Of a DNA stretch of 64,000 bases, positions 15,885-44,174 are shown one piece after another (position 1 is the stretch's first letter; each line of letters opens with the position of its first letter). This DNA is from a virus: positions 52,029 to 116,028 of the IMG/VR virus record IMGVR_UViG_3300022864_000001; one strand, given 5' to 3'. The notes beneath the pieces were generated by a model. It saw nothing but the letters and a program-made list of their open reading frames with translations. It was not told the DNA's origin and did not search any database. Position numbers and translations under genes: made by a program.

Positions 15885-17239
15885 AATTCATCCATATACG
15901 AACGGCTCCGCACGCCCGCCCAAACATCGAAAATGCTACCTATGTCAAACGCAACCCCGCCCCTCTCTTTTACCCGCGCTGCATACATCTTCCCCAGGGG
16001 CCCCGCGCCTATGAGGAAAAGATGCCCAGGATATGGCACTTTGATTTCGTCCATTAGCTCATGGTATCTTGTAGGCCAATGGTAGTTGGCCCGCCGCTCG
16101 CGCATTGTCTGTGCCTCTACCGGAACAGGATACCATCGCACAGAGCCAATACCATACTCTGCTTGCAGTTGGCGCCCTATACCGCGGCAACCGATGATAC
16201 TAATGCTCTCTCGGCCTTTCAGCAATGGTTGAAAGAGGCGTTGTTGATAAAACTCAATGTGCAAATCGCCATTGGCCAGCTTGCCCCCGGGCGCAACGAG
16301 ATTGTATGCCTTTAGGTAGAGTTCTACTTTGTCCCAGTCCCCAGGTCTGCGTCTGTGCTCCTCGTCTGGTACGCCAATGATATCGGCCTGCCTTGCTGCT
16401 TGGCGAAGGTTGTTTGCCATGTTGGTTAAGTCGCCCCAGCTAAACTGTTGCGGCCCAAACCAATAGTCCAATGACCGGAATAGCGGCGTCCGCCTTTCGG
16501 TAAACTCCGGCCAGGCCAGCAAGCGTGCTCCACCATCGTTTATCCTAATTACCGACAATGGTCGCCCGCTGTCTATACAATCACACAGCCTGTCTAACAC
16601 CTCTACGGCATTGACATAGACAGGCTTAGGCCCAGCAGGCAGCAGATAGCCCTCTCGCATTGGTGGCATATTGCGATAGACCGGGAAACGCCATGCGGCC
16701 CAGGCCGCATCAAAGAATGCTCGGCCCAGATTGACCTTCCAGTAGATGTCGTCTACGACAATGACGCCCTTTGTATGCGCCACATTCATAATGTCCGTGT
16801 AGCACACATCATAACGGTGCAGGCCATCTACGAATGCGAAGCACAGCGGGCGTGCTTTCAATGCCGCCACGGTATCTTTGTTCGTTGACGCAGTGCGGAA
16901 GATGTCTATAATGTCTGCGTACTCCGCCGTGTTCTCTAGGAACGCGTCGTACTCCCATCCCTCGCATTCTGGCGAACCAGGCCCCCAGGGGTCTACGACG
17001 ACAACGCGACGACCATACTTTTGCGCTACCTCAGCTAGTATGCAGGTTGTTACGCCGGTCTTCGCGCCAATTTCTACGAAGTCGCCAGGGAATTGCCCAG
17101 CGCATAACTCAGCGACCCAGCGCAATCTATCTGGCTGACAGTGCCCGCCGCGGCCCTTCTTGGCACATTCTGGCGCCATCGGTTCGTCGAATTCTGCTGT
17201 GATGGCTTTTACGTCGCCGTATAGGGATAATGTGTTCAT
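15785..17239 (-). CDS. Class I SAM methyltransferase (Methyltransf_24-like) fused to a GT-D-like domain
   Basis: VEIGAKTG, VVDPW, FVDGLH.Y, VVDD; C-terminal half SVIRINDG, IIGV, LIGAGPLGK, DIGSIFD.WAG. Confidence 0.75.
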   Translation of the reverse strand: MNTLSLYGDVKAITAEFDEPMAPECAKKGRGGHCQPDRLRWVAELCAGQFPGDFVEIGAKTGVTTCILAEVAQKYGRRVVVVDPWGPGSPECEGWEYDAFLENTAEYADIIDIFRTASTNKDTVAALKARPLCFAFVDGLHRYDVCYTDIMNVAHTKGVIVVDDIYWKVNLGRAFFDAAWAAWRFPVYRNMPPMREGYLLPAGPKPVYVNAVEVLDRLCDCIDSGRPLSVIRINDGGARLLAWPEFTERRTPLFRSLDYWFGPQQFSWGDLTNMANNLRQAARQADIIGVPDEEHRRRPGDWDKVELYLKAYNLVAPGGKLANGDLHIEFYQQRLFQPLLKGRESISIIGCRGIGRQLQAEYGIGSVRWYPVPVEAQTMRERRANYHWPTRYHELMDEIKVPYPGHLFLIGAGPLGKMYAARVKERGGVAFDIGSIFDVWAGVRSRSYMDELWGSLYSPVTTICTPCSPSRICLIDTGVQCSGS

Positions 17240-17439
17240 GTGACAATTCCCGACATCTCTTGCACCTCTTCTCTGGCGCACCAAGCCACAAAGCCCCGAA
17301 GCCTTCCCTCTGTAAGTTCGTAGCAACTTCCGCAAAGGTTTTCTTCGGAATCCTCTAGCATAACCAGGTAGCGATTGATTGCAAAGCGCAGCCTGTCAAC
17401 GAAGCCAAATGTTATTAGAACCATGTTGTCAGTGCCCAT
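17236..17439 (-). CDS. Hypothetical protein
   Basis: SD GGAGGGG; stop overlaps the next start. Confidence 0.5.
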   Translation of the reverse strand: MGTDNMVLITFGFVDRLRFAINRYLVMLEDSEENLCGSCYELTEGRLRGFVAWCAREEVQEMSGIVT

Positions 17440-17515
17440 GTCCCCTCCAATACCATTGTTACGATACCTCAGAAGTTACAGACATCTTGCGATGAATTGT
17501 AACATCATTGAAACA

Positions 17516-17725
17516 TCACAGCCTAACAACGCGAGCGCCATCGGGCACACGGGGCAAATCCCTCCGTGGCGGGCCAAGGTTGCCATCCTCGTCCCTAGAG
17601 GCTACAAAGCAGCCCATCAGAGATTGCCATGTCCCGTGGGCAGCGATCCAGACAGCATACTCGCCACTCTCCGTTTGGCGTATTTCCCAATTTGTGAATT
17701 GCTCTGTCGCAACATATTCATTCAT
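17516..17725 (-). CDS. Small hypothetical protein, paralog of 17722..17922
   Basis: NEYVATEQFTNWEIRQTESG...WQSL versus NEDIATEQFTVGEVRQKKSG...WQSL. Confidence 0.6.
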   Translation of the reverse strand: MNEYVATEQFTNWEIRQTESGEYAVWIAAHGTWQSLMGCFVASRDEDGNLGPPRRDLPRVPDGARVVRL

Positions 17726-17922
17726 GGGAGTATCACTGGCTGACAACGCGGGCCTTCAGGGACAAGCGGCAAATTGACGGGGCCGTCGCCCTCCTTCCAG
17801 GTGAGAGCAGCGCCAGCCAAGGATTGCCACCCGTCACCGTTCCAGACAAACAGTTGTCCGCTCTTCTTCTGCCGCACTTCTCCAACTGTAAATTGCTCTG
17901 TCGCAATATCTTCATTTAGCAC
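17722..17922 (-). CDS. Small hypothetical protein, paralog of 17516..17725
   Basis: GTG start overlapping the end of the DUF616 gene; clear similarity to its neighbour. Confidence 0.6.
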   Translation of the reverse strand: MLNEDIATEQFTVGEVRQKKSGQLFVWNGDGWQSLAGAALTWKEGDGPVNLPLVPEGPRCQPVILP

Positions 17923-18568
17923 GGAACATCTCCTCTCGGTGCTCAGACCGCCAGAACATATCAGGCGCAAGCCCGGGCCACAAGTTGGCAGGAATAATCC
18001 CACACTTCATGTCCATCTTCCATAAGCAGTAGGGAAAACTGAGTTGGTCTCTGAGCGTGTAGTGTAGCATCTCGGTCCACCACGCCTCGTTGAAAGTTGC
18101 TATAGTATCGGTGTTGCGGCGGACAAGTACTCCAGTAGCAAACATTGGCCCTGCGTACCCCTCTTTCAAATAGGCGGCAAGCTGTCCATAGACTGCATCG
18201 ATGCTGCCACGCCCCGCAGTCACTATTGCCTTAGCTTCCTCGCGAATATCTTTATGCCACGGATGTTTGAACGCTGCCATGTCATGTCCGTCCAAGAAGC
18301 ACGCTACCTCGTCGGGCAATACCTTTAGCCCTATGTCGCCGTCGTGCCAAATAGTTGTGTCGGTATTGGGGAACCATCTGTGGGGCAATGCCTTGTACAT
18401 GCGCGCCTCGCGTCGCGGGTCTTTATGCTTTCTCTCTACAATGCGTATGTCCCAACCACGGGAGTTTACGTTAGCATCAGTGAAACAGACGTGGTGAGCA
18501 TGGGCTGTTTTGTTGGGGATGAGAAAGTCGTAATTGCCGAATATGGCTGTATATACGACGGTCTTCAC
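17912..18568 (-). CDS. DUF616 / TOD1-MUCI70-like glycosyltransferase
   Basis: VVYTAIFGNYD, CFTD, K.LPHR.F, WHDG, RDQLSFPY. Confidence 0.85.
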   Translation of the reverse strand: MKTVVYTAIFGNYDFLIPNKTAHAHHVCFTDANVNSRGWDIRIVERKHKDPRREARMYKALPHRWFPNTDTTIWHDGDIGLKVLPDEVACFLDGHDMAAFKHPWHKDIREEAKAIVTAGRGSIDAVYGQLAAYLKEGYAGPMFATGVLVRRNTDTIATFNEAWWTEMLHYTLRDQLSFPYCLWKMDMKCGIIPANLWPGLAPDMFWRSEHREEMFRAK

Positions 18569-19167
18569 AGCATCCCCTCTAGCACCTTGAACCTCAACGT
18601 CGCGCTATCTTGCAGCTTCCAATCGCTTATCGTTGCCCCCACCGCATGCTCGACAAATACGTGTTGCGCCAGAACGCTTCGCCATCCCTTCTTGTATGCC
18701 TGAAGAGTAAGCCAATTGTCTGAACCGTAATGGACAAAGTCGGGGTCAAGCAGCCCCACATCGGCGAAGACTTCGCTCTTTATGAGCGTACAGAAGAAAG
18801 ACAATAGAAATACGCGCCTGTGACCAAACGGCATCCCCGGCCAGCCAGAAGATTGTATCTCACCCCGACACCTGCCACTAGGCCCAGCGAAGCCGTATTC
18901 AGGCTTGCTATCTATGGCCTCCCTGAGCAGTACAAGCCAGTTGTCCGTTATTGGAACAGCGTCGTCGTTGAGCAAACACACATAATCGGTATCAAGCCGA
19001 CGCAGCCCCTTATTGACAGTCTTGGTAAATCCATCCCCGTCTACATCATGGACAATATCTAGCTTGGCCTCACACCCAGCATTGGCTAAGGCAGCCCGCC
19101 CAGTTGCTGCTGCAACATCAGGGCGCAACGTGGGGATGATGATGGTTATCATTTCCTTACGTACCAT
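18565..19167 (-). CDS. Glycosyltransferase family 2
   Basis: IIIPT, GFTKTVNKGL, LLNDD, VGLLDPDF.HYGSD. Confidence 0.88.
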   Translation of the reverse strand: MVRKEMITIIIPTLRPDVAAATGRAALANAGCEAKLDIVHDVDGDGFTKTVNKGLRRLDTDYVCLLNDDAVPITDNWLVLLREAIDSKPEYGFAGPSGRCRGEIQSSGWPGMPFGHRRVFLLSFFCTLIKSEVFADVGLLDPDFVHYGSDNWLTLQAYKKGWRSVLAQHVFVEHAVGATISDWKLQDSATLRFKVLEGML

Positions 19168-19730
19168 ACTGTATCAGGCAAAAACCATACGTCTTCAAGC
19201 AATTCGTCTACCGCCCGTATTACGCCAAGATACTGTGGCTCGTAGTCATGGCCCGCCAAGATGCCTCCCGTCCGTACAATGGGCAACCACGCCCTAATGT
19301 CGTCCTTTACTGACCGATACGAGTGATTGCCATCAATATACACCAAATCAAGCGATTCTGGCTCAAATAACTTCGCCGCCCATACTGACGGCAGCCGCCA
19401 TACGTGAACTATTTCGGGGTATTGTGCTCCAAACCGCAACGCGTGTTGAAAATCGCCCTCCCAATCAATAACATGCCCTATCTCACAACCAACGCGGTCC
19501 TCGCCCACAGCGCCCTCAACCGCATATGACCGCCATGGGTCAATAAGATGGTAAGCATCGAGTTGCTCCGCGCACGTAGACAATACCATTTCTGAACTAT
19601 AGCACTTGTGTACACCCACTTCGGCTACGGTTCGGCACTTACCGACTCGTATGAGGCCCACGAGTGACTGCGTATGCATTCCAGGTACGCGGTAGCGCTG
19701 GGCAGCTGCTTTCCGCCTATCGCTCACCAC
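19149..19730 (-). CDS. Class I SAM methyltransferase (Methyltransf_24-like)
   Basis: AEVGV, IDPW, DLVYIDGNHSY..VKDDI.AW...V..GGILAGHDY. Confidence 0.88.
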   Translation of the reverse strand: MVSDRRKAAAQRYRVPGMHTQSLVGLIRVGKCRTVAEVGVHKCYSSEMVLSTCAEQLDAYHLIDPWRSYAVEGAVGEDRVGCEIGHVIDWEGDFQHALRFGAQYPEIVHVWRLPSVWAAKLFEPESLDLVYIDGNHSYRSVKDDIRAWLPIVRTGGILAGHDYEPQYLGVIRAVDELLEDVWFLPDTVWYVRK

Positions 19731-22861: not shown

Positions 22862-23071
22862 ATGAATAAACAAACAAACCTCGTTACGACTGCGCAAGCT
22901 GCTACCCAACTGGGCCTCACCTACTATCGCGTGATACAATTCATCCACGGTAGTCGTCTCCCCGCCGTGAAGCTGGGACGAGACTGGCTCATCCAACAGA
23001 AAGACCTCGATAAGTTTGCGGCTATCCCCCGTAAGACGGGAAGGCCGAGAAAGGCGAAAAATGATGGCTAA
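22862..23071 (+). CDS. Excisionase-like HTH (HTH_17) DNA-binding protein
   Basis: LVTTAQAATQLGLT...I..SRLPAVKLGRDWLI...DL; C-terminal AT-hook-like GRPRK. Confidence 0.85.
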   Translation: MNKQTNLVTTAQAATQLGLTYYRVIQFIHGSRLPAVKLGRDWLIQQKDLDKFAAIPRKTGRPRKAKNDG

Positions 23072-23993
23072 CAAGCGTCGCCGCCGCCCTATTGTCTGTG
23101 GTGTCTACGAGATAAGAAATCTAACCACACAAAAACGATATGTTGGAAGTTCAAAGAATATTTTCCGTCGTTGGCAAGACCACAAATCTAGATTGGTTCG
23201 TGGTTTCCATCACTCGAAATACTTGCAGCGCGCCTGGTACAAACATGGGGCAGCAGATTTTGTACTCTCCATTCTAGAACTGGTTGATAGCGAGACCCAC
23301 CTAATAGGGCGAGAACAATATTGGATGGACACCCTGCAATCCTTTGAGCGCGACAAGGGCTACAATGCTGACCCCATTGCTGGCAGCGAGCAGGGCATTA
23401 CTGCCAAGGCCATTGGTTCCAATCACGGCCTGACAACGTTGACTGAGGCACAGGTAGCGATTATTAAACAGCGCCTTGCCCTTGGTGACACCCTGAATAT
23501 GATTGCTAAGGATTATGGCGTTTGTTTTCAAACCATTAGCAATATCAAGCGCGGGCTTGTATGGCTACATGTGCCCAATCCCATACTAAGCGATGCCCAG
23601 AGACAAGAAGCAACAAGCCGCCACAAAAGACTGCGCAGTCTTCTAAGCCCCAAGACCAAGCTCGCCGAAGAAGACGTTATCGAAATTCGGCAACGCGCTG
23701 CCGCAGGCGAAACAGGCGTTTCCATCGCTAAAGACTACCCCGTTGGCTTTGGAGCAATTTGCGCCGCTATCAGCGGCAAGACTTGGAAGTCCACGCCAGG
23801 GCCCATCATACCTGATAGGAAGCGCGGCGAGGGTTCATCCTATGCCAAACTTACCGCTAAGGCTGTCTGCGAAATTAGATGCAGGCTAAAGAATGGCGAA
23901 TCCGCGGGGTCCATTGCCAAAGATTATCCGGTAACAAAGTCCGCTATCGGACGCATAAAACTAGGACAAACATGGAGACGCCTTATCTGTTAG
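23061..23993 (+). CDS. GIY-YIG homing endonuclease with three C-terminal HTH-like repeats
   Basis: CGVYEIRN...YVGSSKNI..RW..H; LT/LA...V..I+...A..Y.V....I..I..G..W occurs three times. Confidence 0.88.
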   Translation: MMANKRRRRPIVCGVYEIRNLTTQKRYVGSSKNIFRRWQDHKSRLVRGFHHSKYLQRAWYKHGAADFVLSILELVDSETHLIGREQYWMDTLQSFERDKGYNADPIAGSEQGITAKAIGSNHGLTTLTEAQVAIIKQRLALGDTLNMIAKDYGVCFQTISNIKRGLVWLHVPNPILSDAQRQEATSRHKRLRSLLSPKTKLAEEDVIEIRQRAAAGETGVSIAKDYPVGFGAICAAISGKTWKSTPGPIIPDRKRGEGSSYAKLTAKAVCEIRCRLKNGESAGSIAKDYPVTKSAIGRIKLGQTWRRLIC

Positions 23994-26748: not shown

Positions 26749-27444
26749 TCATTCATGCCACTGCCGAATCTCTGGAAGTTCCCAGTTGCCTGCCCAAGCC
26801 CAGCCATTTCTGTGTTTTTGCCTACCAACATTCTTCACCCGTGGCACAGCGGGATAAATCTCATACAGCCCATTGTCCTGCACGTGCCTCAGTATATGCT
26901 TGTCCCAACTTACGCCCGGTAGTGCCCATCCGACTTTCTGCCACCTGTCTTTCCACGTTGCCCATCCCCACGGATGGAAAAAACATCTTCGCCTTGCGTC
27001 CGCCCAATGCCTCTCGCTATGAGCAGCAAGTTGATCAGGCGTCATTGGTTTTGTGCCGGGCCGATGATAGGCTGTGACAGAGAAGACGGTTGCGTCCCGT
27101 TCGTATTCGTCTAGTGCCCACTCAAAATATCTTAGACTATCTGGCCCTGGTATACAATCATCCTCAAGAACAATTACTCGGTCTCTTTGCGCAAAGACTT
27201 TCGTTAGCGCCTGCTGCATGTTCAGGCGAATGCCCATACGCTGTTCGTTGAAGAACCAGTGGTGTGCCCTAAAGAAGCCTGCGTCGCGTGCCCATTCAAG
27301 ATGTTCGATAACCTCTGGCGGCCCAGGCTCAACAAATGCCCAATAGGTATACTCGCCTACGCCGTCGCATCTGGATAGTGCCTCAAGCAACTGGCGCGTG
27401 AAGCCGGGCCGATTATACAATGTAGACACAATGACGTTATCCAT
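26749..27444 (-). CDS. GT-A fold glycosyltransferase
   Basis: YNRP, VIVLEDD, WGWATWKDRW, SWD, RVKNVG. Confidence 0.85.
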   Translation of the reverse strand: MDNVIVSTLYNRPGFTRQLLEALSRCDGVGEYTYWAFVEPGPPEVIEHLEWARDAGFFRAHHWFFNEQRMGIRLNMQQALTKVFAQRDRVIVLEDDCIPGPDSLRYFEWALDEYERDATVFSVTAYHRPGTKPMTPDQLAAHSERHWADARRRCFFHPWGWATWKDRWQKVGWALPGVSWDKHILRHVQDNGLYEIYPAVPRVKNVGRQKHRNGWAWAGNWELPEIRQWHE

Positions 27445-27557: not shown

Positions 27558-28316
27558 CTAGCCACTTCTATCCTCATAATGTCCCGTGACACAGGCCCTC
27601 AGAATCAGAAGCCCAGACAAATCATCTTGTACAACAAAGCGCATCTTGTCTTCATCCTCTGCCCTCAATACAGTATCCCGCCCAAATTGCAACGATATGG
27701 TCAGGAACGTATTCGTTCCATCGTGAATGGCATTGGTTAACTCGGCACGTGGAAACCATAGCCAATCTGCAAGCTGCTTGAACGTATTTGAGAACGTTAC
27801 CCCGCCAGCGTTGATGCGCTGATAGACTAACCCGCTTGCCAAACTCACGCCCAATAAATCGTCATACGCAATTCCCGGCAGTGTGCCACCTGCCTCGTCG
27901 GTATCGTACGCAGCGGCGACCGAGATTTGCATGTTAGTTAGCCACAACCAAGTGCCCTTGTCAGCTTCTAGGCAAAACTCAATCGGCGTTCCTGTCTGCT
28001 CGAACTGAATATCATCCAGATAAAACTTGGGCGACTTGCCTTCTTTGGCAACGATGCGTATTCTCAGAGCGTCTATCGTCCCCGATATGAGACCCATATC
28101 TGTCAGGGGGATAGCCAACTTTATCCACGTGTCAAAGTTGCTCCAGTCAAAATAGTCTTCTAAGTTGACTGCTGTCCCGATAACCGCGCTTGTTCCTGTA
28201 TCCCACCCATATACTTCAATGCTGTCGCCATTCTTCCAGTCTTTGTCTACGTAAATCCACGCACTGAGCGCAACATAGCCCGAAACTGTTAGGTTGCTGC
28301 CCTTGTCAAATTGCAT
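27558..28316 (-). CDS. Putative structural protein with a carbohydrate-binding-like jelly roll, probably 5' truncated
   Basis: SAWIYVD, W.KLAIPL.D, FYLDDIQF, DDLSGL. It starts abruptly inside the iscB remnant with no clear SD. Confidence 0.55.
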   Translation of the reverse strand: MQFDKGSNLTVSGYVALSAWIYVDKDWKNGDSIEVYGWDTGTSAVIGTAVNLEDYFDWSNFDTWIKLAIPLTDMGLISGTIDALRIRIVAKEGKSPKFYLDDIQFEQTGTPIEFCLEADKGTWLWLTNMQISVAAAYDTDEAGGTLPGIAYDDLLGVSLASGLVYQRINAGGVTFSNTFKQLADWLWFPRAELTNAIHDGTNTFLTISLQFGRDTVLRAEDEDKMRFVVQDDLSGLLILRACVTGHYEDRSG

Positions 28317-28702
28317 AACATCGTTGACGGCGGCAATCTTCCACTGCGCTTGCTAGAAGCACGATTGTTGAACCTCGGCGGACGATACCACTTTCTGCTG
28401 CGTCGCGCACGCCTGTTGGCCCGTCTGGCATCCATCTTTTTCTTGATGTCCAGGCGATGTCTCAATATGCCTGACATCAAGACTTGCCCATTCCCTACGC
28501 AACAAAACCCGGTGTGGTGACTGCCTTTGTCAACCCCCAATGTTACATCTTGCACATTCTCTTCGCAATCCCAGGTTAGTTGGATTGTGAATGGCTCGCG
28601 GTTGACTACGCGGGCTTTACCAGCTTCTAGTAAGTGACGCGCTTTAGCTGGCTTGCAGGGCATTAATTTGTTGCCATTCTTGTTGATTACGTATACTAAC
28701 AT
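28289..28702 (-). pseudogene. iscB: Truncated IscB (IS200/IS605 OMEGA nuclease): PLMP + RuvC-I + bridge helix only
   Basis: VYVINKNGNKLMPC.PAKARHLL..GKA, PFTIQL, LGVDKGS, RRANRRARRSRKWYRPPRFNNR, RLPPS; similarity ends at about residue 125, with no HNH or RuvC-II/III. Confidence 0.85.
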
Positions 28703-28709
28703 TCTGTCC

Positions 28710-28928
28710 TTACGACCTCCGTTAGTTAGAGTGAGTTGCTCCTCGCGGCTGTTAAGTAGGTTTGTCGCGCCTAGCACACATTCGCCTTTCGACTACCCTT
28801 AATGCTAGGCCACAGAGCTGAAAGCTGGAACAACACTCGCAGGTGTGATAGCCTACCTAACTTCTGCTACAAAGTAGCCCGCTGTTGGCCCCATACCCAT
28901 GTCTGTCTATAGGTTTAGGGGCCATTAC
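28710..28928 (-). ncRNA. omega-RNA (HEARO-like) scaffold upstream of iscB
   Basis: About 220 nt non-coding, directly 5' of iscB; TGGCCCC/GGGGCCA first stem; TCACACC, TCCAGC, GCTCTGT, AAACC, GCGAGGAG elements typical of these RNAs. Confidence 0.7.
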
Positions 28929-29007
28929 TCTTTCTACACATGGTAGATGAGCTATTCTTCGTTAGAAACGTCACCGCCCCCCGTTGGCGGGCGTCGGGCT
29001 GGAGATG

Positions 29008-29625
29008 CTATCTCCAGGGGGGTTCAGCAAGCGCCGCTGTCTCACAGACGGGGGCTGCGGTTGCCGGATGGGGGTTGGCACAGCAACCCACCAGTTCTGC
29101 TTTTGCCTGCTCCCAGGGCACGGTCTCGCCAGCTCTATAGGCTTGCACGGCCTCACGTGCGGCCTGGGCGTCTTCCAGGTCTTCAAGTACCTCAACGAGA
29201 GCGTGGGCTAGTTTTCTATGTAGGCTAACCCGATATGGCGCCCTTGCCTTTTTTAGCGCCTGGTGAGCAGCGTCAAGCTGCATGAAACAAGCCTCACACC
29301 TCGCAATCATACCCTTGCTATCCGTGATGTCATAGATTGAAGAGGCCGCAGCAATATACACATCATAGTCGCGGTAAGCCTCTTCAATGCCGCTAAGGGC
29401 ACGGTCATACTCTTCATAAGCAGGCTCAGTAGCTAGGCGATAGCGAGCCCTGTCTGGGCCGTGCAATAGATGCGAAGCAATCCATCCTACATTCAGCCCC
29501 AGTTCAGCAGCCCGCAACATATTGTCCAACGTTACTTCTGCGCCATCAGGCCACTCAGATTCAAACGTGAGAGCCTCGTCTTCCCAGGTATTGTGCTCCC
29601 GTAGAAACCCCGATGTGATTTTCAT
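29008..29625 (-). CDS. Phage protein with a C-terminal RelB/Phd-type antitoxin-like segment
   Basis: C-terminal LEDLEDAQAAREAVQAYRAGETVPWEQAKAEL. Confidence 0.55.
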   Translation of the reverse strand: MKITSGFLREHNTWEDEALTFESEWPDGAEVTLDNMLRAAELGLNVGWIASHLLHGPDRARYRLATEPAYEEYDRALSGIEEAYRDYDVYIAAASSIYDITDSKGMIARCEACFMQLDAAHQALKKARAPYRVSLHRKLAHALVEVLEDLEDAQAAREAVQAYRAGETVPWEQAKAELVGCCANPHPATAAPVCETAALAEPPWR

Positions 29626-29646
29626 ATTCCCCTCAACGTTGTCTAA

Positions 29647-29718
29647 TAGGGCAGGGCGGACTTGAACCGCCGACCGCGCCCTTATCAGAGGCGTGCTCTA
29701 CCGCTGAGCTACTACCCT
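29647..29718 (-). tRNA. tRNA-Ile(GAT)
   Basis: AGGGTAG TAGCTCAGCGGTAGAGC A CGCCT CTGATAA GGGCG ... GGCGG TTCAAGT CCGCC CTGCCCT A; no encoded CCA. Confidence 0.9.
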
Positions 29719-29725
29719 CGGTAAA

Positions 29726-29797
29726 CAGGCCAGACAGGATTCGAACCTGCATCCCGCGGTTTTGGAGACCGCTGCTCCGCCGTTGAGCTACTGGCCT
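29726..29797 (-). tRNA. tRNA-Trp(CCA)
   Basis: AGGCCAG...GCGGT CTCCAAA ACCGC...GCAGG TTCGAAT CCTGT CTGGCCT G. Confidence 0.92.
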
Positions 29798-29814
29798 AGC
29801 GCCATTGATGGCAA

Positions 29815-29889
29815 AGCCGAGAGCGAGATTTGAACTCGCGGCCTGCAGGCTACAAAGCTGCTGCTCTTGCCAAACTGAGCTATCTCGGC
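29815..29889 (-). tRNA. tRNA-Thr(TGT) with a C31-C39 mismatch
   Basis: GCCGAGA...GCAGC TTTGTAG CCTGC...GCGAG TTCAAAT CTCGC TCTCGGC T. Confidence 0.82.
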
Positions 29890-29892
29890 ACG

Positions 29893-29921
29893 ATTATACC
29901 TAAGAAAGTGATATATGTCAA
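29893..29921 (-). promoter_or_regulatory. Consensus sigma70 promoter for the tRNA cluster
   Basis: TTGACA-N17-TATAAT ending a few nt before tRNA-Thr. Confidence 0.8.
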
Positions 29922-29923
29922 AT

Positions 29924-30775
29924 CTACCAGTCCTCGAAATCGAGTCGCTTGAGCCAGTTGTCGGGGTCGGTCTCTTGGAAAAGCCTCACATGCTCTGGCG
30001 TAAAGACATCCCGCCACCCACCTACCAGCCCCTTACGAAATGTCGGGGACTTCTTCGTGTCCTGCCCAGAAGCAACCATCGCCGTTACGACACGATCCAT
30101 CGTCTTGTCATCAATCTTGGGCGGTGCGACTTCCATACAGCCCGCCAGGCGCTTCATGCCGTATTCTACGATGCGTTGTGCTGTCTCTGCCGGATGTAAC
30201 CGAGCGTCTTTGTACCGAACTGAGCAAACCCAGTCTTGGTCTAACCACGGCGCGTACAGTTCCCAACGCTCCATCACGCCAGGATAATATACAGGGCCAT
30301 ACTTGCTATCATCCACCTGAAGTCCAGTGATAACTGCTGACAACGCTTCGTTGAAGCCGCCAAGTCTTCGGTACGCCGCTTTGTCTAGGTGTCTGTCCTG
30401 CTCGCGTTTGCTGAGAATATGGTGCGTCTGCGACACGGCCACGTCTCTGAGGTCGCGGTAGATGAATGTCATGGCCAAACCAGCATAGTCCAATATGGCA
30501 CTTATTTCCGTGTTGTACCCACAGTGCCCGAAGTGGTAGTATCCAGGTCTCGTTTGGCATAGCGCATAGGTCACGTATCTTACGTTGTGCCAGTCGTTCG
30601 TCCAGGCGTGATAGGCGAATGAGCTGATCATCGTGCCCAACTTGGCGTACCGGCGAGCTGGCATCATGCGCGCGAAGGGCTGCAACATGGATTTGACCAA
30701 GTGAAGTCCGGCTTTGGGAAAACCGTTGCAGTACCAGCTCGGAGCTAAAATTGTCTCCGGTGGTGTGTCGGCCAT
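29924..30775 (-). CDS. PAPS-dependent sulfotransferase
   Basis: GFPKAGLH (5'-PSB), YRDLRDVAVS (3'-PB), FRKGLVGGW. Confidence 0.88.
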   Translation of the reverse strand: MADTPPETILAPSWYCNGFPKAGLHLVKSMLQPFARMMPARRYAKLGTMISSFAYHAWTNDWHNVRYVTYALCQTRPGYYHFGHCGYNTEISAILDYAGLAMTFIYRDLRDVAVSQTHHILSKREQDRHLDKAAYRRLGGFNEALSAVITGLQVDDSKYGPVYYPGVMERWELYAPWLDQDWVCSVRYKDARLHPAETAQRIVEYGMKRLAGCMEVAPPKIDDKTMDRVVTAMVASGQDTKKSPTFRKGLVGGWRDVFTPEHVRLFQETDPDNWLKRLDFEDW

Positions 30776-30795
30776 GCCGCGCATTTCGACGGATT

Positions 30796-31140
30796 TCAAA
30801 GGGCTGCCTCTAACCGCTGCCATAGCTCCATTGCGCTTGCGATGATACTCCGGATCGCCGTCACAGTTTCCAACCACCCCTCAAATTCGGGTTCAGCAGG
30901 CATGGTGTCCATATAGTATTCGATCGCGGCAACAGGGTCTGGCGGCGGAATGCTATGATGCTTCTCTTCGTAGGCATCTAATAGAATGGTAAGCACCTCA
31001 AGTCTGTCGGCATCAGGCGCGTCGGCCTTCGTCTCCCACAGCTCGTCGATCTGAGCCATGGCCCAGTCATAGTCCTCTTTAGTCTTGATTGGCCTAACGT
31101 CCACAGCCACCCCTAAGCAGTTATTTGATTTGTTTCCCAT
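30796..31140 (-). CDS. HigA-like antitoxin N-terminal domain lacking the HTH
   Basis: VRPIKTKEDYDWAMAQIDELW...PDADRLEVLTILLDAYEEKHHSIPPPDPVAAIEYYMD, then unrelated sequence. Confidence 0.75.
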   Translation of the reverse strand: MGNKSNNCLGVAVDVRPIKTKEDYDWAMAQIDELWETKADAPDADRLEVLTILLDAYEEKHHSIPPPDPVAAIEYYMDTMPAEPEFEGWLETVTAIRSIIASAMELWQRLEAAL

Positions 31141-31145
31141 GTCTC

Positions 31146-31275
31146 ACCTCTTGTTTGAAACTATCTCTTGGTTTGGAAGGGGCGGGCAGCGAGCCAAGAG
31201 GTTCTCGCGTTTAGCCGTCGCCTAGCCCGCCCCGTATTTTCTAACTCATTATACTTATGTTCGTAATTCTGTCAA
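31146..31275 (-). promoter_or_regulatory. Promoter plus structured 5' leader of the higA-like gene
   Basis: TTGACA-N16-TATAAT (31275..31248); stem GGGGCGGGC/GCCCGCCCC; internal ACCTCTTG complementary to the SD region CAAGAGGT. Confidence 0.65.
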
Positions 31276-31291
31276 ATCGAGCAAGCTAGAC

Positions 31292-34397: not shown

Positions 34398-35825
34398 CTA
34401 GGCACTAACTTTTTGGACTGCCAGTTTGTACGTCTCAACCAACTGCCCACCAAGCCTGCGCCGCATTACGAACTTGACCGTGTTCAACTCAGCCTCTGTA
34501 CCACCCAGGAAGCGCTCGACAGTCATGCCCACGCGGTCGGCGATGTAGTACGCACTGAAATCGCCAAACAGGATGGGATATGCATCAGCAGCGATGCTCG
34601 GCATACCTTCTTGCATGTACACGGGATAGCCAAGCAGCATAAGCGGTTGTCCTGCTTGCTGGTCGGGTTCCCAGAGGTAGTTGCCCGCGCCATCCTTCAT
34701 CGTGCGGATCTCCTCAACAGTCGCCCGTTCCATAAGCCATCTGGCCCTGGGCAGATACTGCGACGCGATAGCATAAACCATTCCGATCAGGCCGTGCTTG
34801 GTAACCGCAGCGCCTGCGCCGTCCCACGTTAGGGCGTTGGCATTGCCAGTATCCTCTTCAGTCAGCCCCCCGACGTTAGCACTGCCAGGCAGGATGCCCA
34901 AGGGGCTCGCGCCACCAGCGCTCGTCAAGAATCTGTTGTCCTCATCAATCCCCGCCGCCTCTGCATACTTCGTCGCCAAGAAGTCCTCAACGTCGAAGAA
35001 GGCATCCTCAAGCATGTTCCGAGAGATTGGCGTAGTTGCCATAACCGTATGAATGGCAATGTTTTCCATGCCAAACGTCAGGTTCGTTTCTGATTGGCCC
35101 GCCGTGGGCGTCTCGTCAACCCATGTTACTCGGACAGCGGACGTATACTGGTCATCACCCCCAGTACCTACAGGGATGCTAACCATGTCGCGGCTGGTCG
35201 TCAGCTTGAATGCCCACGGGCGGATCATCGTAAATCCTGGCATACGCTCGATGACGCGGGAGTTGAAGTCTATTGGGACGGCGTAGCCGCCTAGCACATC
35301 ACTCCCCTCGACCATCGTAGCTTTTAGGACCTTGACGTCATAGATGCCCTGGGCCAACGCGTCCTTGATAGCCGCGGGCGTATAGACGATGTTGCGCATT
35401 GCTTTGCGCTCAATCGAGTCCATATCGTCCAGCCCAACACGCAAGTACTTGTTGAACGCTGCTTTCTGGGCCCAGTATTTCCCTACATAATCGTGGCCGT
35501 GAAGATTGGTCAGGAGGGACTTGACCATATTGTCGGTATCCCCGAATTTGGTTACATAAGCAGCCTTATGCACCATCTGTGCTGGTGTCTCAGTCGGCTC
35601 TACTGGATCGGGTGTCGGCAGATTGCCCCCACCCATCATCGGCAGTGGCGGGCGTACGGGTTCAGGTGTAGCCGCCTTGATATTGTCTACTTTCTGCATT
35701 TCCTCAATGGCCTCGGCAGTGCCCTCAGCTTCCTCGCGGAGCCTGCGACCGTTTTCCAAGTCGCCGTCCTCCAGGGCCTTGTGCGCTTCAATCTTGAGAG
35801 ATGCAAGTTTCTCTTGCAGATTCAT
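34398..35825 (-). CDS. Major capsid protein (HK97 fold)
   Basis: Coiled-coil delta domain; GGYAVP, WVDE, ISRNMLED, P.GIL, KDGAGNYLW, LLGYPV, ILFGDFS.Y.IADR. Confidence 0.95.
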   Translation of the reverse strand: MNLQEKLASLKIEAHKALEDGDLENGRRLREEAEGTAEAIEEMQKVDNIKAATPEPVRPPLPMMGGGNLPTPDPVEPTETPAQMVHKAAYVTKFGDTDNMVKSLLTNLHGHDYVGKYWAQKAAFNKYLRVGLDDMDSIERKAMRNIVYTPAAIKDALAQGIYDVKVLKATMVEGSDVLGGYAVPIDFNSRVIERMPGFTMIRPWAFKLTTSRDMVSIPVGTGGDDQYTSAVRVTWVDETPTAGQSETNLTFGMENIAIHTVMATTPISRNMLEDAFFDVEDFLATKYAEAAGIDEDNRFLTSAGGASPLGILPGSANVGGLTEEDTGNANALTWDGAGAAVTKHGLIGMVYAIASQYLPRARWLMERATVEEIRTMKDGAGNYLWEPDQQAGQPLMLLGYPVYMQEGMPSIAADAYPILFGDFSAYYIADRVGMTVERFLGGTEAELNTVKFVMRRRLGGQLVETYKLAVQKVSA

Positions 35826-35827
35826 AA

Positions 35828-36856
35828 CTATCCTCCTACTTCTAGGTCTAACAAGGCCAGCCGTTCGCGTTCCACAGCGATTTCCCATTGGCGCGCTTCT
35901 TCATCAGCGCCTTCGCCATCGTCAATCTCTGGGAACTCCAATCCGGCAGCCTTGTAAACTGCTTTCAATTCTGATACTGGGCGCTCCAGCATCCGATATT
36001 CCATGGGGGTTTGCGTCATAGAAACATCTACGATGCACCACTGTTCTAGCCACCCATCTTTCGCAACCTTTCGATGCCCAGAAAGACATCCCGTACTCGT
36101 GTGCAGGCTGCCTTCCGCAATCATGGCCGCGATGGCCGCGCGGTACTCATTGCCTTTCTTCATCTCGGCTTCGTACCACAAGCCCACGTCGTCAACTAGC
36201 ATGATGTCTACTAGGCCCACGACGCTGGCCTTCATTGTCTCATCCGCCCCGTGGTGGTAAAACAGTGGCAACTTGCCCACGGCATCGTATACATTCAGCA
36301 TCTCGCCAGTTTTGTCCGTGAAGTATTCCTTAACCAAATCCCTGCGGTCTGGCCCACCCCAAAGAGCAGCGTAAGCACCGAGGCGGTGTTGGCCTAATGC
36401 CTTGATCGCCAATCCAACAGGGGCGCCGCAGTTGCCCTTGGGGATTACGGTCTTGGTTTGAGCCTTCACTACATCAGCGCTGCTACTCGGCGCGCCCTTT
36501 GCCGCAACAGTTGGTTCAATCGCTTCACCGCCTATATGCTCACCAACGCTAGGCGCGTCGGGAATAGCCTTCGTTACTTCTACCCATTCGCGTTCGACTT
36601 CTGGGCGTTCCACTTCAACCCACTCGTCTTCATCAGCGAATGTCATTCCCCCACCAGCCTGGGTAAAGGGGACCTTGAAGTTCTTCGTTCTTTCCACGAT
36701 TACGTGCTCGTCCCACACTTCTCTTACCCATACACCTTCTGCCCCAGACCAATACGCTTCCTCCTCGCCGCTCACTGTGTAGAACTGCTGCCGGATCCGC
36801 GAGGTCAGCTCGTCCAGGTTTTCAGCCTTGTTCAAATCAATTATTTCTTCACTCAT
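35828..36856 (-). CDS. Prohead maturation protease
   Basis: YAALWG, D...EYF, LFYHH, VG, DDVGLWYEA, STG, SMTQTPME. Confidence 0.8.
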   Translation of the reverse strand: MSEEIIDLNKAENLDELTSRIRQQFYTVSGEEEAYWSGAEGVWVREVWDEHVIVERTKNFKVPFTQAGGGMTFADEDEWVEVERPEVEREWVEVTKAIPDAPSVGEHIGGEAIEPTVAAKGAPSSSADVVKAQTKTVIPKGNCGAPVGLAIKALGQHRLGAYAALWGGPDRRDLVKEYFTDKTGEMLNVYDAVGKLPLFYHHGADETMKASVVGLVDIMLVDDVGLWYEAEMKKGNEYRAAIAAMIAEGSLHTSTGCLSGHRKVAKDGWLEQWCIVDVSMTQTPMEYRMLERPVSELKAVYKAAGLEFPEIDDGEGADEEARQWEIAVERERLALLDLEVGG

Positions 36857-37735: not shown

Positions 37736-38572
37736 CTATTCTGTTCCGCCTTGTGTCTGTACTGCGTCAAGCAGTATCCACCCCTTATGGTGGGGCAGCT
37801 TGCCGTTCTTTACGCTGCCCATGTGGCCGTTGTGAAGCCCGCGCCCTTGACACATGCGCTTGAGGTTCACGCCAGCGGGGATAATCTCGCCGGTATCCCT
37901 GTGGATGAACGCGGGGTATGGCTTAGCCATAGCCGCGCCTATTTTGAGCCTTGTCCCCTTCGTGAGATGTTTCCCCCAGTTGTGGTTAAGCTCGCCTGTC
38001 AGGGATGCGCCTATCTTCTGTTTGTGGCCTTCAGTAAGGATATGGCCTAGACAGTTTTGGTTGCCCATCTTACGCTCGCTCTGCTGGCGCTTAAATTCGC
38101 CAGTGTGCTTGTACCCCTTGCCGTTTTGATTGCCTAGGCCATATTGATTGCCCAGTAGAGATATGCTTATCTTTTGTTTGCTTTCCTCTGTGTGATTACG
38201 CCCTAACCAGTGTTGGTTGCCCATCTGTGAAGCACTCATTTTGAGCCTTGACTTTTCTGTATGCTTACGCCCCGCCATTGACGATTTGGCATTTTGTGCA
38301 GTATTGTAGCTTTTTCCCTCAGCAATGCGCCTGTCAATCCACTTTTGTTCTACTGCAACAAGCAAAGCAGGGTCTTCTACTACTTCCAGAATATGGAACT
38401 CAAATATATCCTCGCCGTCCTTGTCCCAGGCCGCTTGGAAGTCTACGCAATGGTGTCTCCCATTACGGAGCGTATAAAGATGCTGCTTCTGCCGTTGCTC
38501 AATGTTCCCCGAGCTTCCAGTATATGCATACCCGTCCAGCCCGTTCTCAAACTCGTAAACACCCTGTATCAT
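37736..38572 (-). CDS. GIY-YIG homing endonuclease with NUMOD3 repeats
   Basis: QGVY...YTGSSGNIEQR..QH; G.KHTEE.K.K.S repeats. Confidence 0.88.
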   Translation of the reverse strand: MIQGVYEFENGLDGYAYTGSSGNIEQRQKQHLYTLRNGRHHCVDFQAAWDKDGEDIFEFHILEVVEDPALLVAVEQKWIDRRIAEGKSYNTAQNAKSSMAGRKHTEKSRLKMSASQMGNQHWLGRNHTEESKQKISISLLGNQYGLGNQNGKGYKHTGEFKRQQSERKMGNQNCLGHILTEGHKQKIGASLTGELNHNWGKHLTKGTRLKIGAAMAKPYPAFIHRDTGEIIPAGVNLKRMCQGRGLHNGHMGSVKNGKLPHHKGWILLDAVQTQGGTE

Positions 38573-38585
38573 GCCACAATATACG

Positions 38586-38807
38586 TTACGAAAACGCATT
38601 GTGTGCCTCGGAAAATATAGCTTTTACGCTATTGGTATCTTTGGCCCCTTGCAGTTTTGCGAGTATGTCTACAACTACCATCTCTGGTATCAGTGCCGCC
38701 ACGAATTCTCTCTCATTAGGCAGCTTACCCCTCTCCATTTCCCCGAGGGCTACTTTGCGCCACCTCTTCAACTCGCCCCGTACAGCTACACGAAGTGCTT
38801 TGTCTTC
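38586..38807 (-). other. In-frame continuation of the portal ORF after a single TAG
   Basis: GAT GTC TTA TAG GAA GAC AAA GCA CTT CGT ... TTG AAG AGG TGG: 73 further sense codons in the portal frame. Confidence 0.6.
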
Positions 38808-40202
38808 CTATAAGACATCACCCTGATCCTCCGGTTCTTCGGGCACATCATCGCCCCCTCCCCCAGCAAGACGATTCGTCAGCCTCTCCGGCGCTTCAGA
38901 ACCCGTCAGCGTGCCAACTCTTTGTCTCAATACCTCAACGCCACCAGGGGCAGCCAAGTGCTTCAGCAAGCGGACGGGTATTTTGCAGACCTCGTAGCCT
39001 ATGGGTTTTAAATCCAATACCGCGCGGTTCTCGTCTATCGTCCTGTCCTGGGAATATTGCGCGTATTCTTGCACGCTTATTGCCCTATCAGTGGGAATGA
39101 CGTTCGGCGACTTGGCCAGGAAATCATCACCGTAGAATTGCCGCATTACCAGCGTCCACTGGGCAGCAAAGCTGTCTAGTATGGGTTGCGTAGTGTTCTG
39201 GGCAAAACTTGCCAATACAGCATACAGATTCTCGCTGGCTACTTCGCCCGTTACTAAGCCGTTTGGTATGCCAAAAATCTGGTAAATCTGTCCACGGTTG
39301 AATTCGCGACTGAGCCGCAGTTGCATCTCCTCCATTGACTGTTGGATAATTTCAACAGAGAGGTCTCCACCACGAACGATGGCCGATGCGCGACCTTGCC
39401 CAAATTGCTCGTGGATTGCCTCTTTAGCCTCAACAAAATCAGTATCAGAGATTTCAGGTGGCAACGACAAAATAGCGGTCGGTACAGCGTTGTCTTCGCC
39501 ATAGAACTGCTGTTCCCAATCTGCCTGGGCCAAGTCTGTTCTAATAGGCGAAAGCGCTGCTGTCAGGCTGCTGAGTCCCTCCCAATAGCTCCAGAAATTC
39601 GGGAAGCGCAGACAGAATACGTTCTCGCCAGGCAACTGGTGCTTCTGCCCGTCAATGGTAATGACGTAATCAATGATAATGCGCCCTGTTATCCGCGACC
39701 TGTGCAACGTTTTGGGCAATGGAGACACTTTGTTCGATGGCAGGGGCCAAAGTTCCACCGGCTCGCCACGGCCTATCTTGGGCGTTGAGATAAAAATGTG
39801 TGCGTTCCCACGTAGAAGATACCAGCCCAAAGTATATCGCGCGATATAGTCGTAGCTGAACATATCGTTCGGCATACGAAGCAGTTTGTCGAACGCGTGG
39901 TTTGGCGTCGCAACAACTTCCCCGTCTGCCTCCTGTTTGGCCGCAAATGGCCGCGAGTCCTGGCGAGCTACCGCACTTCCAATGACACGTAACGCAGTCC
40001 AAACCGCGTATGATGTAATCGCAATAAGTTCAGCGTCAGACGAATCCACGGTTTGCCCGGCCCGCGACTCGGCCAGCTTCCCCATCAGGTTCATAATTAC
40101 GCGCTGAGAACTGGTATTGCCGTGCAACGGCGCCCGCGCGTATGCCCACGCGGAAGACCAATAGTGTAACCACCGCCCTAATGTGTTGGGAGGCCCTGTC
40201 AT
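38808..40202 (-). CDS. Portal protein (HK97 family)
   Basis: LL.MPN, LLRGNA, ELWPLP...V, GLSSL, F.....P.AIL, IFGIP. Confidence 0.92.
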   Translation of the reverse strand: MTGPPNTLGRWLHYWSSAWAYARAPLHGNTSSQRVIMNLMGKLAESRAGQTVDSSDAELIAITSYAVWTALRVIGSAVARQDSRPFAAKQEADGEVVATPNHAFDKLLRMPNDMFSYDYIARYTLGWYLLRGNAHIFISTPKIGRGEPVELWPLPSNKVSPLPKTLHRSRITGRIIIDYVITIDGQKHQLPGENVFCLRFPNFWSYWEGLSSLTAALSPIRTDLAQADWEQQFYGEDNAVPTAILSLPPEISDTDFVEAKEAIHEQFGQGRASAIVRGGDLSVEIIQQSMEEMQLRLSREFNRGQIYQIFGIPNGLVTGEVASENLYAVLASFAQNTTQPILDSFAAQWTLVMRQFYGDDFLAKSPNVIPTDRAISVQEYAQYSQDRTIDENRAVLDLKPIGYEVCKIPVRLLKHLAAPGGVEVLRQRVGTLTGSEAPERLTNRLAGGGGDDVPEEPEDQGDVL

Positions 40203-40989: not shown

Positions 40990-41829
40990 CTATATCTCTG
41001 GCATGCAGTAACGCATTTCGGGCTTGGTGGGAATCGCGGCGGCTAAACCAGCGTAATATTGCAATAGGGCGCCGCGCCTTGCAAGCTTAATTATGCTTAT
41101 CTTCTGCTTGGTTGCGTCACTGTGCTTATGGCCCAGGTGGTATTGGTTTCCCCTTTTGGCATCGCTCATCTTTTGCTTGGCCGCGAGGGTGTGGTGTTTC
41201 CCCCACATGGGATGAAGAGGGCCCTTAACGGCATCGCCTATTTTGCGTTTGTGGTCTTCGGTGAGCTTCTTGCCTAAGTGGGCCTCGCGGTTTTTGCGGT
41301 TGGCTTCTTCAGTGTGGTGTTTCCCCCACATGGGGTTGCCCTCACCCGTATTGTTATCGCTCATCTTCTGCCTAGACTCTGGGGTATGCTTATAGCCCCG
41401 GGTGTTCTGGTTGCCCATCATGCGTTCGCTTTGCTTGCGGCAAAACTCCTCAGTATGCTTGTAGCCCAGGCAATATTGATTGCCTGTCGAGGCCTCGCCT
41501 ATTTTTCTCTTGTGGTCTTCTGTAAGGGTGCGCCCCCGCATCGGCGCGCCGGCGAAAGGTGCAACGTTATAGCAATTTCCCCAAAATGCATCCAAATACT
41601 CCTGCTCTATCTCTGTGAGCAGGCTGGTGTCTTCAATTACTTCCAGGACACAGAACTCAAACGCGCCTTCACCATACTTGTTCCAGGCGCGCTGGAGATG
41701 AATGCAGTGATGCTTCCCATGGCCAAGTGCGCGGCGGTGCTCCCCCCAACGCTTCTCAATATTTATTGAACCTCCTCTATACGCTTTCCCGCTCTGGCGA
41801 TGCGTAATCTTGTAAATGCCCTGAGTCAT
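40990..41829 (-). CDS. GIY-YIG homing endonuclease with NUMOD3 repeats (paralog of 37736..38572)
   Basis: QGIYKI...YRGGSINIEKRW.EH; NPMWGKHHTEE repeats. Confidence 0.88.
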   Translation of the reverse strand: MTQGIYKITHRQSGKAYRGGSINIEKRWGEHRRALGHGKHHCIHLQRAWNKYGEGAFEFCVLEVIEDTSLLTEIEQEYLDAFWGNCYNVAPFAGAPMRGRTLTEDHKRKIGEASTGNQYCLGYKHTEEFCRKQSERMMGNQNTRGYKHTPESRQKMSDNNTGEGNPMWGKHHTEEANRKNREAHLGKKLTEDHKRKIGDAVKGPLHPMWGKHHTLAAKQKMSDAKRGNQYHLGHKHSDATKQKISIIKLARRGALLQYYAGLAAAIPTKPEMRYCMPEI

Positions 41830-44145: not shown

Positions 44146-44174
44146 ATTATACCACAGAAACGCGATTTTGTCAA
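44146..44174 (-). promoter_or_regulatory. Consensus sigma70 promoter for the packaging/head operon
   Basis: TTGACA-N17-TATAAT with extended TG. Confidence 0.85.

Follow-up and report, generated by a model that had tools for sequence, protein, structure and literature searches.

Toxin-antitoxin (TA) systems can defend bacteria against phages when their labile antitoxins vanish or are displaced and the free toxin shuts down translation, and the Dmd protein of T4 is a phage antitoxin mimic. Type II systems with toxins of the RelE superfamily rank with the most frequent gene pairs of bacteria, but whether they serve in phage defense is still debated. In PMC11980606, the HigB and RelE/ParE toxin families are described as ribosome-dependent mRNA cleavers, and a toxin-antitoxin-chaperone (TAC) system with a HigB toxin is described as aborting lambda infection. 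Phage orphan antitoxins that defeat DarTG, namely NADAR/DarG-like enzymes and AdfA, are established (PMC11825919), as are a vibriophage antitoxin mimic acting in counter-defense (PMC11481870) and the action of TifA against ToxIN (PMC10853763). Two genes that bear comparison with these systems, designated higA' and ORF205, lie in a 64,000-nt stretch of phage DNA (the window) that comprises bases 52029-116028 of the IMG/VR record IMGVR_UViG_3300022864_000001, a virus of 116,028 bp with direct terminal repeats (DTRs) that is rated 100% complete. They correspond to the open reading frames (ORFs) 30796-31140(-), encoding the 114-aa protein HigA', and 29008-29625(-), encoding the 205-aa protein ORF205. 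Both genes retain the portion of a type II antitoxin that binds the toxin and lack the DNA-binding portion, and both are orphans in a complete phage genome. The likeliest explanation, at a little below an even chance in our estimate, is that HigA' and ORF205 serve as decoys that neutralize RelE-superfamily toxins.

Several features set these genes apart from their closest described counterparts. HigA' is homologous in its N-terminal domain to HigA of the Escherichia coli K-12 type (PDB 5IFG and 5YCL) and belongs to a family that pairs with PF09907 HigB toxins. Unlike that HigA, it has a degenerate and shortened HTH_3 domain, no accompanying higB, and a separate consensus promoter with a structured leader, and its gene sits inside the structural gene block of a lytic-looking DTR phage. 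ORF205 matches, at residues ~148-179, the toxin-wrapping half of Phd/YefM-RelB antitoxins (PF02604; RelB1-RelE1, PDB 9G12), but it lacks their N-terminal domain, is built on an unrelated phage scaffold, and is followed by no toxin gene. Both resemble the phage counter-defense antitoxins and mimics in being phage-encoded antitoxin relatives without a toxin, proposed to act against a host TA toxin; the known phage cases, however, are type III/IV or non-homologous binders with experimentally shown activity, whereas the present candidates are pieces of type II antitoxins for RelE-superfamily toxins, stripped of DNA-binding domains and one of them a chimera. A further likeness is to the anti-defense islands in plasmid leading regions, described in PMC11541004, where a mobile element bears toxin-less antitoxin genes close to other genes for establishment or anti-defense, and their proposed role is to block TA systems of the host or of rivals. 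Those are plasmid genes encoding full-length antitoxins, although their role is likewise a proposed one. A limited literature search found no description of a phage HigA devoid of its helix-turn-helix (HTH) or of a grafted Phd C-terminus.

The kinship of HigA' with HigA is evident from profile and family comparisons. Residues 14-75 match the entire 66-position profile of phrog_10398 (E 4.2e-15), and the protein also matches positions 1-64 of 166, i.e., the N-terminal third, of phrog_1373, annotated as "transcriptional regulator". A search with the HigA' sequence gave E ≤ 0.001 for 142 of 145 candidate proteins, most of which are ~124 aa long, bear PF01381, and are named HigA by their source. 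A family profile built from 18 members matched PDB 5IFG and 5YCL (HigA of E. coli and Shigella) over its whole length with E about 1e-9, and at least 472 of 600 candidate stretches were confirmed as family members in species-representative bacterial genomes; by sequence, the family is evidently widespread in bacteria.

HigA' tracks the family alignment as far as PDPVAAIEYYMD and diverges beyond it. Its N-terminal domain is identical to that of its nearest homolog, P0002, at 48 of 65 positions, whereas the HTH region is identical at only 5 of 59 (Fisher p 3e-14). Against the consensus of 62 full-length members, identity is 54% in the N-terminal domain (mean of the other members 72%, minimum 60%) and 7% in the C-terminal region (mean of the others 64%, minimum 49%). 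The same split is apparent in the highly conserved family columns, 23 of 31 being retained in the N-terminal domain as opposed to 2 of 19 in the HTH region. The recognition-helix region carries a 4-residue gap, the final ~16 family positions are missing, and PF01381 (HTH_3) gave no match on HigA' at E ≤ 1. In an AlphaFold model (predicted local distance difference test, pLDDT, 75.7), the three helices of the N-terminal domain are followed by one helix at residues 84-113, with no helix-turn-helix. Hydrophobic positions of this tail are loosely in register with the family, and identity is at chance level; the tail may be a decayed HTH remnant rather than foreign sequence.

Two other readings of the HigA' C-terminus were set aside. 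A frameshift of the HTH was rejected, since no other reading frame encodes one, and a match to PF15500 Ntox1 (E 0.0037, 18 bits, cut-off 25) was taken as chance because it is short, sub-threshold, and spans the junction of the two parts of the protein. Unusual HigA arrangements were also seen on other viral contigs. In L022 (2647-4182), a HigA N-terminal domain (phrog_10398, E 3.1e-15) is embedded at residues 119-172 in a viral protein of 511 aa, and higB is absent from the vicinity, while in L020 (2986-4230) a full HigA continues as a single 414-aa ORF behind higB.

ORF205 is composed of a phage scaffold, a short antitoxin piece, and a C-terminal tail. The scaffold belongs to a family of small proteins with 674 representative clusters at E ≤ 0.001, 34 of them at E ≤ 1e-10, and its nearest Atlas clusters are 100% Viruses, none of them named. 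The Pfam and PHROG libraries returned no family for the scaffold, and a Foldseek comparison of the ORF205 model with the PDB gave no match at E ≤ 0.001. All 21 of the aligned scaffold relatives end near "...AL.EALE", without the Phd piece or the ORF205 tail.

Beyond the scaffold, residues 141-178 match NF048017 (RelB-like) with E 1.1e-6 and 28.8 bits, which is below the cut-off of 50, and the C-terminal part also matches phrog_4085 (E 1.6e-4) and DUF6290 (E 0.13). A search with residues 135-205 recovered 27 proteins, 22 of which carry PF02604 Phd/YefM. A run of 32 residues, LEDLEDAQ...AKAEL, is identical (32/32) to the C-termini of P0127 and P0128, both of which belong to PF02604 and to TIGR01552 phd_fam (NCBIfam). 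PF02604 itself gave no match on ORF205, from which the N-terminal Phd/YefM dimerization and DNA-binding domain is missing. At the nucleotide level, positions 29184-29091 are identical at 89 of 94 sites to the 3' part of a phd/yefM gene in a metagenome locus (L103), with four of the five differences at third codon positions, and identity just outside the 94-nt piece falls to 9/40 on one side and 6/40 on the other. The piece represents bacterial DNA that was captured recently, in frame, and with sharp boundaries.

The limits of this capture can be compared with a solved structure. The Phd family profile matches RelB of PDB 9G12 (E 6.8e-11), and the captured piece aligns to the C-terminal half of RelB. 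According to PMC12620021, the N-terminal sheet and helix α1 of this RelB dimerize, while helices α2-α4 wrap RelE1; the phage thus took the toxin-holding part and none of the dimerization and DNA-binding part. In the ORF205 model (pLDDT 86, predicted template modeling score 0.74), a long helix at residues 103-164 runs across the junction and is followed by a loop and a second helix at 171-183, with residues 181-205 in blocks of mean pLDDT 57, 48, and 47. A nearly identical module forms the end of P0125, a 116-aa protein with an N-terminus unrelated to ORF205.

A mirror image of ORF205 was found elsewhere in the phage genome, outside the window. There, a 73-aa ORF (G000:C1:45220-45441 (-); L149 1486-1707) resembles the Phd/YefM N-terminal domain without a toxin-binding tail. 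Its PF02604 match is below the cut-off (22.1 bits, E 1.3e-5), hhalign gives a probability of 86% with 20% identity, and it is the only PF02604 match in the phage genome (G000 45235-45396), away from ORF205. The possibility that this ORF is the missing N-terminal half of the graft donor was rejected, as it is only 20% identical to that Phd family.

Elsewhere, both antitoxin families occur with toxin genes. Using a custom HigB hidden Markov model (HMM), PF09907 HigB was placed directly upstream of the family higA both in bacteria (63 of 78 loci) and on viral contigs (12 of 18 loci), and Pfam confirmed HigB (PF09907) for nine upstream ORFs. Likewise, phd genes like that of L103 are followed by an 86-102-aa PF05016 toxin in 12 metagenome loci, and the three PF05016 toxins that were checked gave weak TIGR02385 RelE/StbE matches. 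In the phage, Pfam scans of the 176 ORFs of the whole genome gave no match to HigB (PF09907) or RelE/ParE (PF05016), six-frame genome searches with the same two families gave 0 matches at E ≤ 1, and the custom HigB HMM gave 0 matches at E ≤ 10 across the genome, with no higB remnant. A promoter and leader lie upstream of higA' in place of higB, while a HEARO RNA and an IscB fragment lie downstream of ORF205 in place of a toxin gene.

These results bear on an earlier, sequence-only reading of the locus, which had described HigA' as the N-terminal part of a HigA-type antitoxin that diverges where the HTH would start, the ORF205 C-terminus as a RelB/Phd-type toxin-neutralizing end fused to an unrelated phage domain, and the neighborhood as lacking a cognate toxin. 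The phrog_10398 match and the contrast with P0002 agree with the first description, and the NF048017 and PF02604 matches, together with the 32-residue identity, agree with the second; the lack of a cognate toxin extends across the complete genome by Pfam, six-frame, and custom HMM searches. The anatomical side of that interpretation, with both genes orphan, deprived of DNA binding, and each behind a consensus promoter, has therefore held up, whereas the functional tie that it drew to the tRNA genes, taken up below, has not. The positions of all features are collected in Table 1.

Table 1. Features of the higA'-ORF205 locus and its immediate surroundings (positions are those of the window).
Feature	Position	Strand	Basis
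Perfect sigma-70-type promoter TTGACA-N16-TATAAT before higA'	31248..31275	-	12/12 match
Structured higA' 5' leader, sub-threshold Rfam int-alpA RNA match	31166..31232	-	33.1 bits (gathering score 35.8), model positions 1-71 of 71
higA', conserved HigA-family N-terminal toxin-binding domain (residues 14-78)	30907..31101	-	phrog_10398, P0002 identity, family columns, 5IFG/5YCL
higA', residues 79-114 and stop: HTH remnant (degenerate) or replacement, modeled as a single long helix	30796..30906	-	P0002 identity, conserved columns, model, sequence
Sulfotransferase, probable TTG start at 30799	29924..30799	-	PF00685 E 2.5e-8; L147 homolog 62% identical
Perfect sigma-70-type promoter TTGACA-N17-TATAAT before the tRNA cluster and ORF205	29893..29921	-	12/12 match
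tRNA-Thr(TGT)	29815-29889	-	ARAGORN; Rfam tRNA (60.7-66.3 bits across the three tRNAs)
tRNA-Trp(CCA)	29725-29798	-	ARAGORN; Rfam tRNA
tRNA-Ile(GAT)	29647-29718	-	ARAGORN; Rfam tRNA
ORF205, scaffold of phage-only family (residues 1-143)	29197..29625	-	674 clusters; Atlas neighbors 100% Viruses; pLDDT 86
ORF205, in-frame captured phd/yefM-relB piece (residues ~148-179), toxin-wrapping helices	29091..29184	-	89/94 nt vs L103; 32/32 aa vs P0127/P0128; 9G12 alignment
ORF205, read-through tail (residues 180-205 and stop), mostly low-confidence	29008..29090	-	pLDDT <50 for residues 193-205; no counterpart in 21 relatives
HEARO (IscB omega) RNA, immediately 3' of ORF205	28731..28925	-	76.5 bits (gathering score 83), E 9.6e-15, model positions 1-211 of 211
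IscB/RRXRR nuclease N-terminal fragment, 162 aa	28289..28777	-	NF040563 E 9.4e-43, positions 1-128 of 314, 146.5 bits (cut-off 175); PF14239 E 3.7e-43

Perfect TTGACA-N16-18-TATAAT sites number 11 in the 116-kb genome, compared with 0.035 in mononucleotide shuffles, and the phage thus evidently relies on host sigma-70-type promoters. Two of the 11 serve the 2.3-kb stretch from higA' to ORF205; other perfect sites in the window are at 44146-44174 (-) and 55483-55511 (+). The structured leader of higA' could have a regulatory role and could have come in together with the gene at its insertion, and AGAGGTGA, which precedes the higA' ATG, reads by eye as a good Shine-Dalgarno-like sequence. ORF205 begins 21 nt downstream of tRNA-Ile with no terminator-like site between them, and it is therefore probably co-transcribed with the tRNAs from the tRNA promoter.

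A single relative, the contig L147, is informative as to how higA' came to its present position. It is the only relative covering the junction between the fiber-like gene and the sulfotransferase gene, which are 64% and 62% identical, respectively, to those of the phage. In L147, the fiber-like gene runs to 6130 and the sulfotransferase gene begins at 6188, leaving only a 57-nt, hairpin-bearing spacer without higA or higB, whereas ~500 bp separate the two genes in the phage and hold the perfect promoter, the leader, the putative Shine-Dalgarno sequence, and the higA' ORF. Because the two flanking genes adjoin each other in L147, higA' must have been inserted and does not derive from a higBA that resided here and decayed. 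The simple-decay alternative, by which relatives would carry an intact higBA at this site, thus came out negatively in the one relative that covers it. At the downstream end, the TGA stop of higA' overlaps the sulfotransferase TTG start (TTGA, 30796-30799), which suggests translational coupling and a sulfotransferase of 291 aa, shorter than the 317-aa ORF that begins at a GTG. The TTG start is considered probable because it aligns with the TTG start of the L147 homolog. The sulfotransferase is itself a resident gene, outside the antitoxin-derived pair.

A mechanism for the proposed neutralization can be sketched from these features. HigA' would contribute a HigA N-terminal domain with its HTH lost, while ORF205 would contribute a phage-specific scaffold that gained the toxin-wrapping helices of a Phd/YefM-RelB C-terminus as an in-frame graft when it recently recombined with DNA of bacterial origin. 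The host-type promoters would allow expression of both by host RNA polymerase during infection, despite their position in a late block. As TA modules of the host, or of rival elements, release toxin once their labile antitoxins run out, HigA' and ORF205 would bind the free HigB-type and RelE/ParE-type toxins and translation could continue. Devoid of DNA-binding domains, they would neutralize toxins without repressor activity and probably without dimerization. It is on these grounds that we infer expression, toxin binding, neutralization, and a benefit to the phage.

Binding of HigA' to HigB was approached by co-folding HigA' residues 12-114 with the Geobacter HigB of L034, both with alignments, alongside three controls. 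The pair reached an ipSAE (interaction prediction score from aligned errors) of 0.40, compared with 0.01 for the best control, although the HigBA complex is already solved and the score may be family memory. Runs agreed in at least 92% of contacts, and partner pLDDT was at least 66. Of 157 solved complexes, 116 attained the mark applied to such scores, as did 2 of 215 mismatched pairs, and scores of 0.60 or below include only 18 of the 157 solved complexes together with both of the passing mismatches. The model thus lends weak support to the idea that HigA' binds HigB.

Various observations weigh against a decoy role and deserve to be considered together. The N-terminal domain of HigA' is less like the family consensus than that of every other sampled member (54% vs. 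a minimum of 60%). The co-fold score, given the solved HigBA complex, may reflect memory and would then indicate likeness at best. Given how recently the graft was acquired, its being intact is uninformative as to selection; a capture in frame and in the correct orientation would happen by accident roughly 1 time in 6, and the 26-residue tail that follows, much of it modeled with low confidence, looks accidental. The contig pieces from four runs (X9, X7, X13, and X18) show 0 differences over both ORFs (X9: 30655-31284 and 28555-29399; X7: 28200-29519) and hence offer no polymorphism for a test of purifying selection. In addition, the decoy role presupposes a host with matching HigB or RelE toxins; a near-identical phd gene with a PF05016 toxin occurs in metagenome locus L103. 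Finally, a degenerate IscB/HEARO element lies ~165 nt away from the graft, debris of mobile elements abounds in the region, and decay of higBA does exist on viral contigs, as exemplified by L016, where a C-terminal remnant of higB behind stop codons is followed by a 67-aa, HTH-less higA.

Much of this is what would be expected if the locus were recombination debris, which is the main rival explanation. Here, HigA' would be the vestige of a higBA or higA that had been acquired and is now decaying, and the Phd piece a neutral, accidental in-frame capture in a hotspot of mobile-element traffic, neither product having been selected to bind toxins. The surroundings fit such a view: positions 28289-28925, directly 3' of ORF205, constitute a degenerate RNA-guided-nuclease element inside the DTR phage, and homing endonuclease genes of the GIY-YIG and LAGLIDADG types are numerous in the genome. 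It is also in keeping with the mostly low-confidence read-through tail of ORF205, with a graft that at ~95% nucleotide identity to the bacterial gene is too young for selection to have tested, with the weak co-fold score, and with the decayed higB remnant beside a truncated higA in L016. Other observations do not sit easily with it. Neutral decay would not spare one domain, yet the divergence of HigA' is domain-selective (48/65 vs. 5/59); the higA' frame is open and ends exactly at the sulfotransferase start; and higA' is served by a separate, perfect promoter and is not accompanied by any remnant of higB. Its absence from the L147 site means that no resident module decayed in place. The limits of the Phd piece coincide with those of the toxin-wrapping region, a second and unrelated scaffold, that of P0125, carries the same module, and the two DNA-binding-less antitoxin derivatives are at most 2.2 kb apart. 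On balance, debris is judged an unlikely origin for the pair, albeit one to be taken seriously.

Alternatively, the modules may be functional without neutralizing any toxin. They could bind other partners, such as the host proteases and chaperones of antitoxin turnover or phage proteins, or ORF205 could retain a native role with an inert appendage. The scaffold family is large (674 clusters), confined to phages, and normally without the appendage (21/21), which argues for a function of its own. The embedding of a HigA N-terminal domain in the 511-aa protein of L022, with no higB nearby, also points in this direction, as does the modeling of the HigA' tail as a long, amphipathic-looking helix instead of a disordered segment. 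Nonetheless, HigB and RelE/ParE toxins are the only documented partners of these modules, as judged from gene contexts and from 5IFG and 9G12, and the results indicate no alternative. Such a non-neutralizing role is therefore considered improbable.

A third possibility is that the antitoxin mimics work as a single functional unit with the three tRNAs, which would replace host tRNAs destroyed by the same defense. The sequence-only reading had noted tRNA-Thr, -Trp, and -Ile with their own consensus promoter, plus a sulfotransferase, between the two antitoxin-derived genes, and this arrangement was recovered in full (ARAGORN; a 12/12 promoter; PF00685 E 2.5e-8). In favor of a unit are the probable co-transcription of ORF205, 21 nt after tRNA-Ile with no terminator-like site, and the presence in the genome of an Rnl1-like RNA ligase (PF09511), a family that repairs cleaved tRNA in T4. 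The functional link that had been drawn between mimics and tRNAs nevertheless found no support, since the partner toxin families are mRNA interferases rather than tRNases (PMC11980606). Moreover, Ile, Thr, and Trp codons are common in the phage, and ordinary codon supply explains the tRNAs; L147 is without a tRNA in the 830 nt following its sulfotransferase. A combined mimic-tRNA unit is accordingly deemed very improbable. The ligase gene itself lies outside the window (G000:C1:27032-28096 (+); L003 8032-9096; PF09511 E 3.3e-12), and no kinase/phosphatase partner for it was seen in the Pfam scan.

Should HigA' and ORF205 indeed neutralize toxins, the fresh Phd/YefM capture (~95% nucleotide identity) beside an HTH-less HigA would show directly, at the genomic level, that phages are under selection to do so. 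The locus would provide two concrete toxin-decoy pairs that are testable by co-expression, and it suggests a search rule for hidden counter-defense genes, namely to look on phage scaffolds for the toxin-binding segments of antitoxins where these come without a DNA-binding domain. It is tempting to go further and propose that phages build toxin "sponges" by domain shuffling, displaying short, in-frame toxin-wrapping peptides of host type II antitoxins on a large phage-only scaffold family, without the parts for DNA binding and autoregulation, with ORF205 and P0125 as independent instances and the HTH-less HigA as a parallel; this broader idea is speculative and, on present evidence, rather unlikely. 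If true, many unannotated C-terminal appendages of phage proteins would be peptides stolen from antitoxins, and they would reveal the host TA systems that act in defense.

As for the wider setting, the locus lies in a minus-strand structural block, downstream of a portal gene (38808-40202) and a capsid gene (34398-35888; PF05065 E 6.5e-55), and is neighbored by several homing-endonuclease genes and by genes for glycosyl-, sulfo-, and methyltransferases. In the structural module, homing endonucleases of the LAGLIDADG and GIY-YIG/NUMOD3 types are encoded at 11091-12140 (+), 23016-23993 (+), 37736-38599 (-), and 40990-41829 (-), and further GIY-YIG genes occur in the remaining genome. The contigs holding this stretch come from runs labeled as salt-lake metagenomes, possibly from one campaign, and no contig joint skipping higA' or the graft was seen among the contig pieces compared. 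Relatives recovered through the capsid of the structural block, L142, L143 (91% identical), and L144 (69%), are on contigs that end before the locus, while L145 and L146 have only part of one downstream protein in common with the phage. The DNA of L147 beyond its sulfotransferase is unrelated to the phage, and HigA', ORF205, P0125, and the Phd alignment, each used singly as a query against viral contigs, retrieved no relatives.

The sulfotransferase region shows some variation of its own. At 29592-30689, one contig of run X7, the only variant contig, carries 63 differences, concentrated in the middle of the sulfotransferase gene, while the adjoining pieces are identical, which suggests a mosaic strain variant. 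Besides the sulfotransferase (29924-30799 (-)), the structural genes are interspersed at 13669-19730 and 26749-27444 with genes for GT1/GT4, GT2, GNT-I-like, and TOD1/MUCI70-like glycosyltransferases and Methyltransf_24 proteins. An 842-aa, glycine-rich, fiber-like protein adjoins this group of glycosyl-, methyl-, and sulfotransferases, which may constitute a virion glycan-modification set, and two sulfotransferase paralogs are present in L147.

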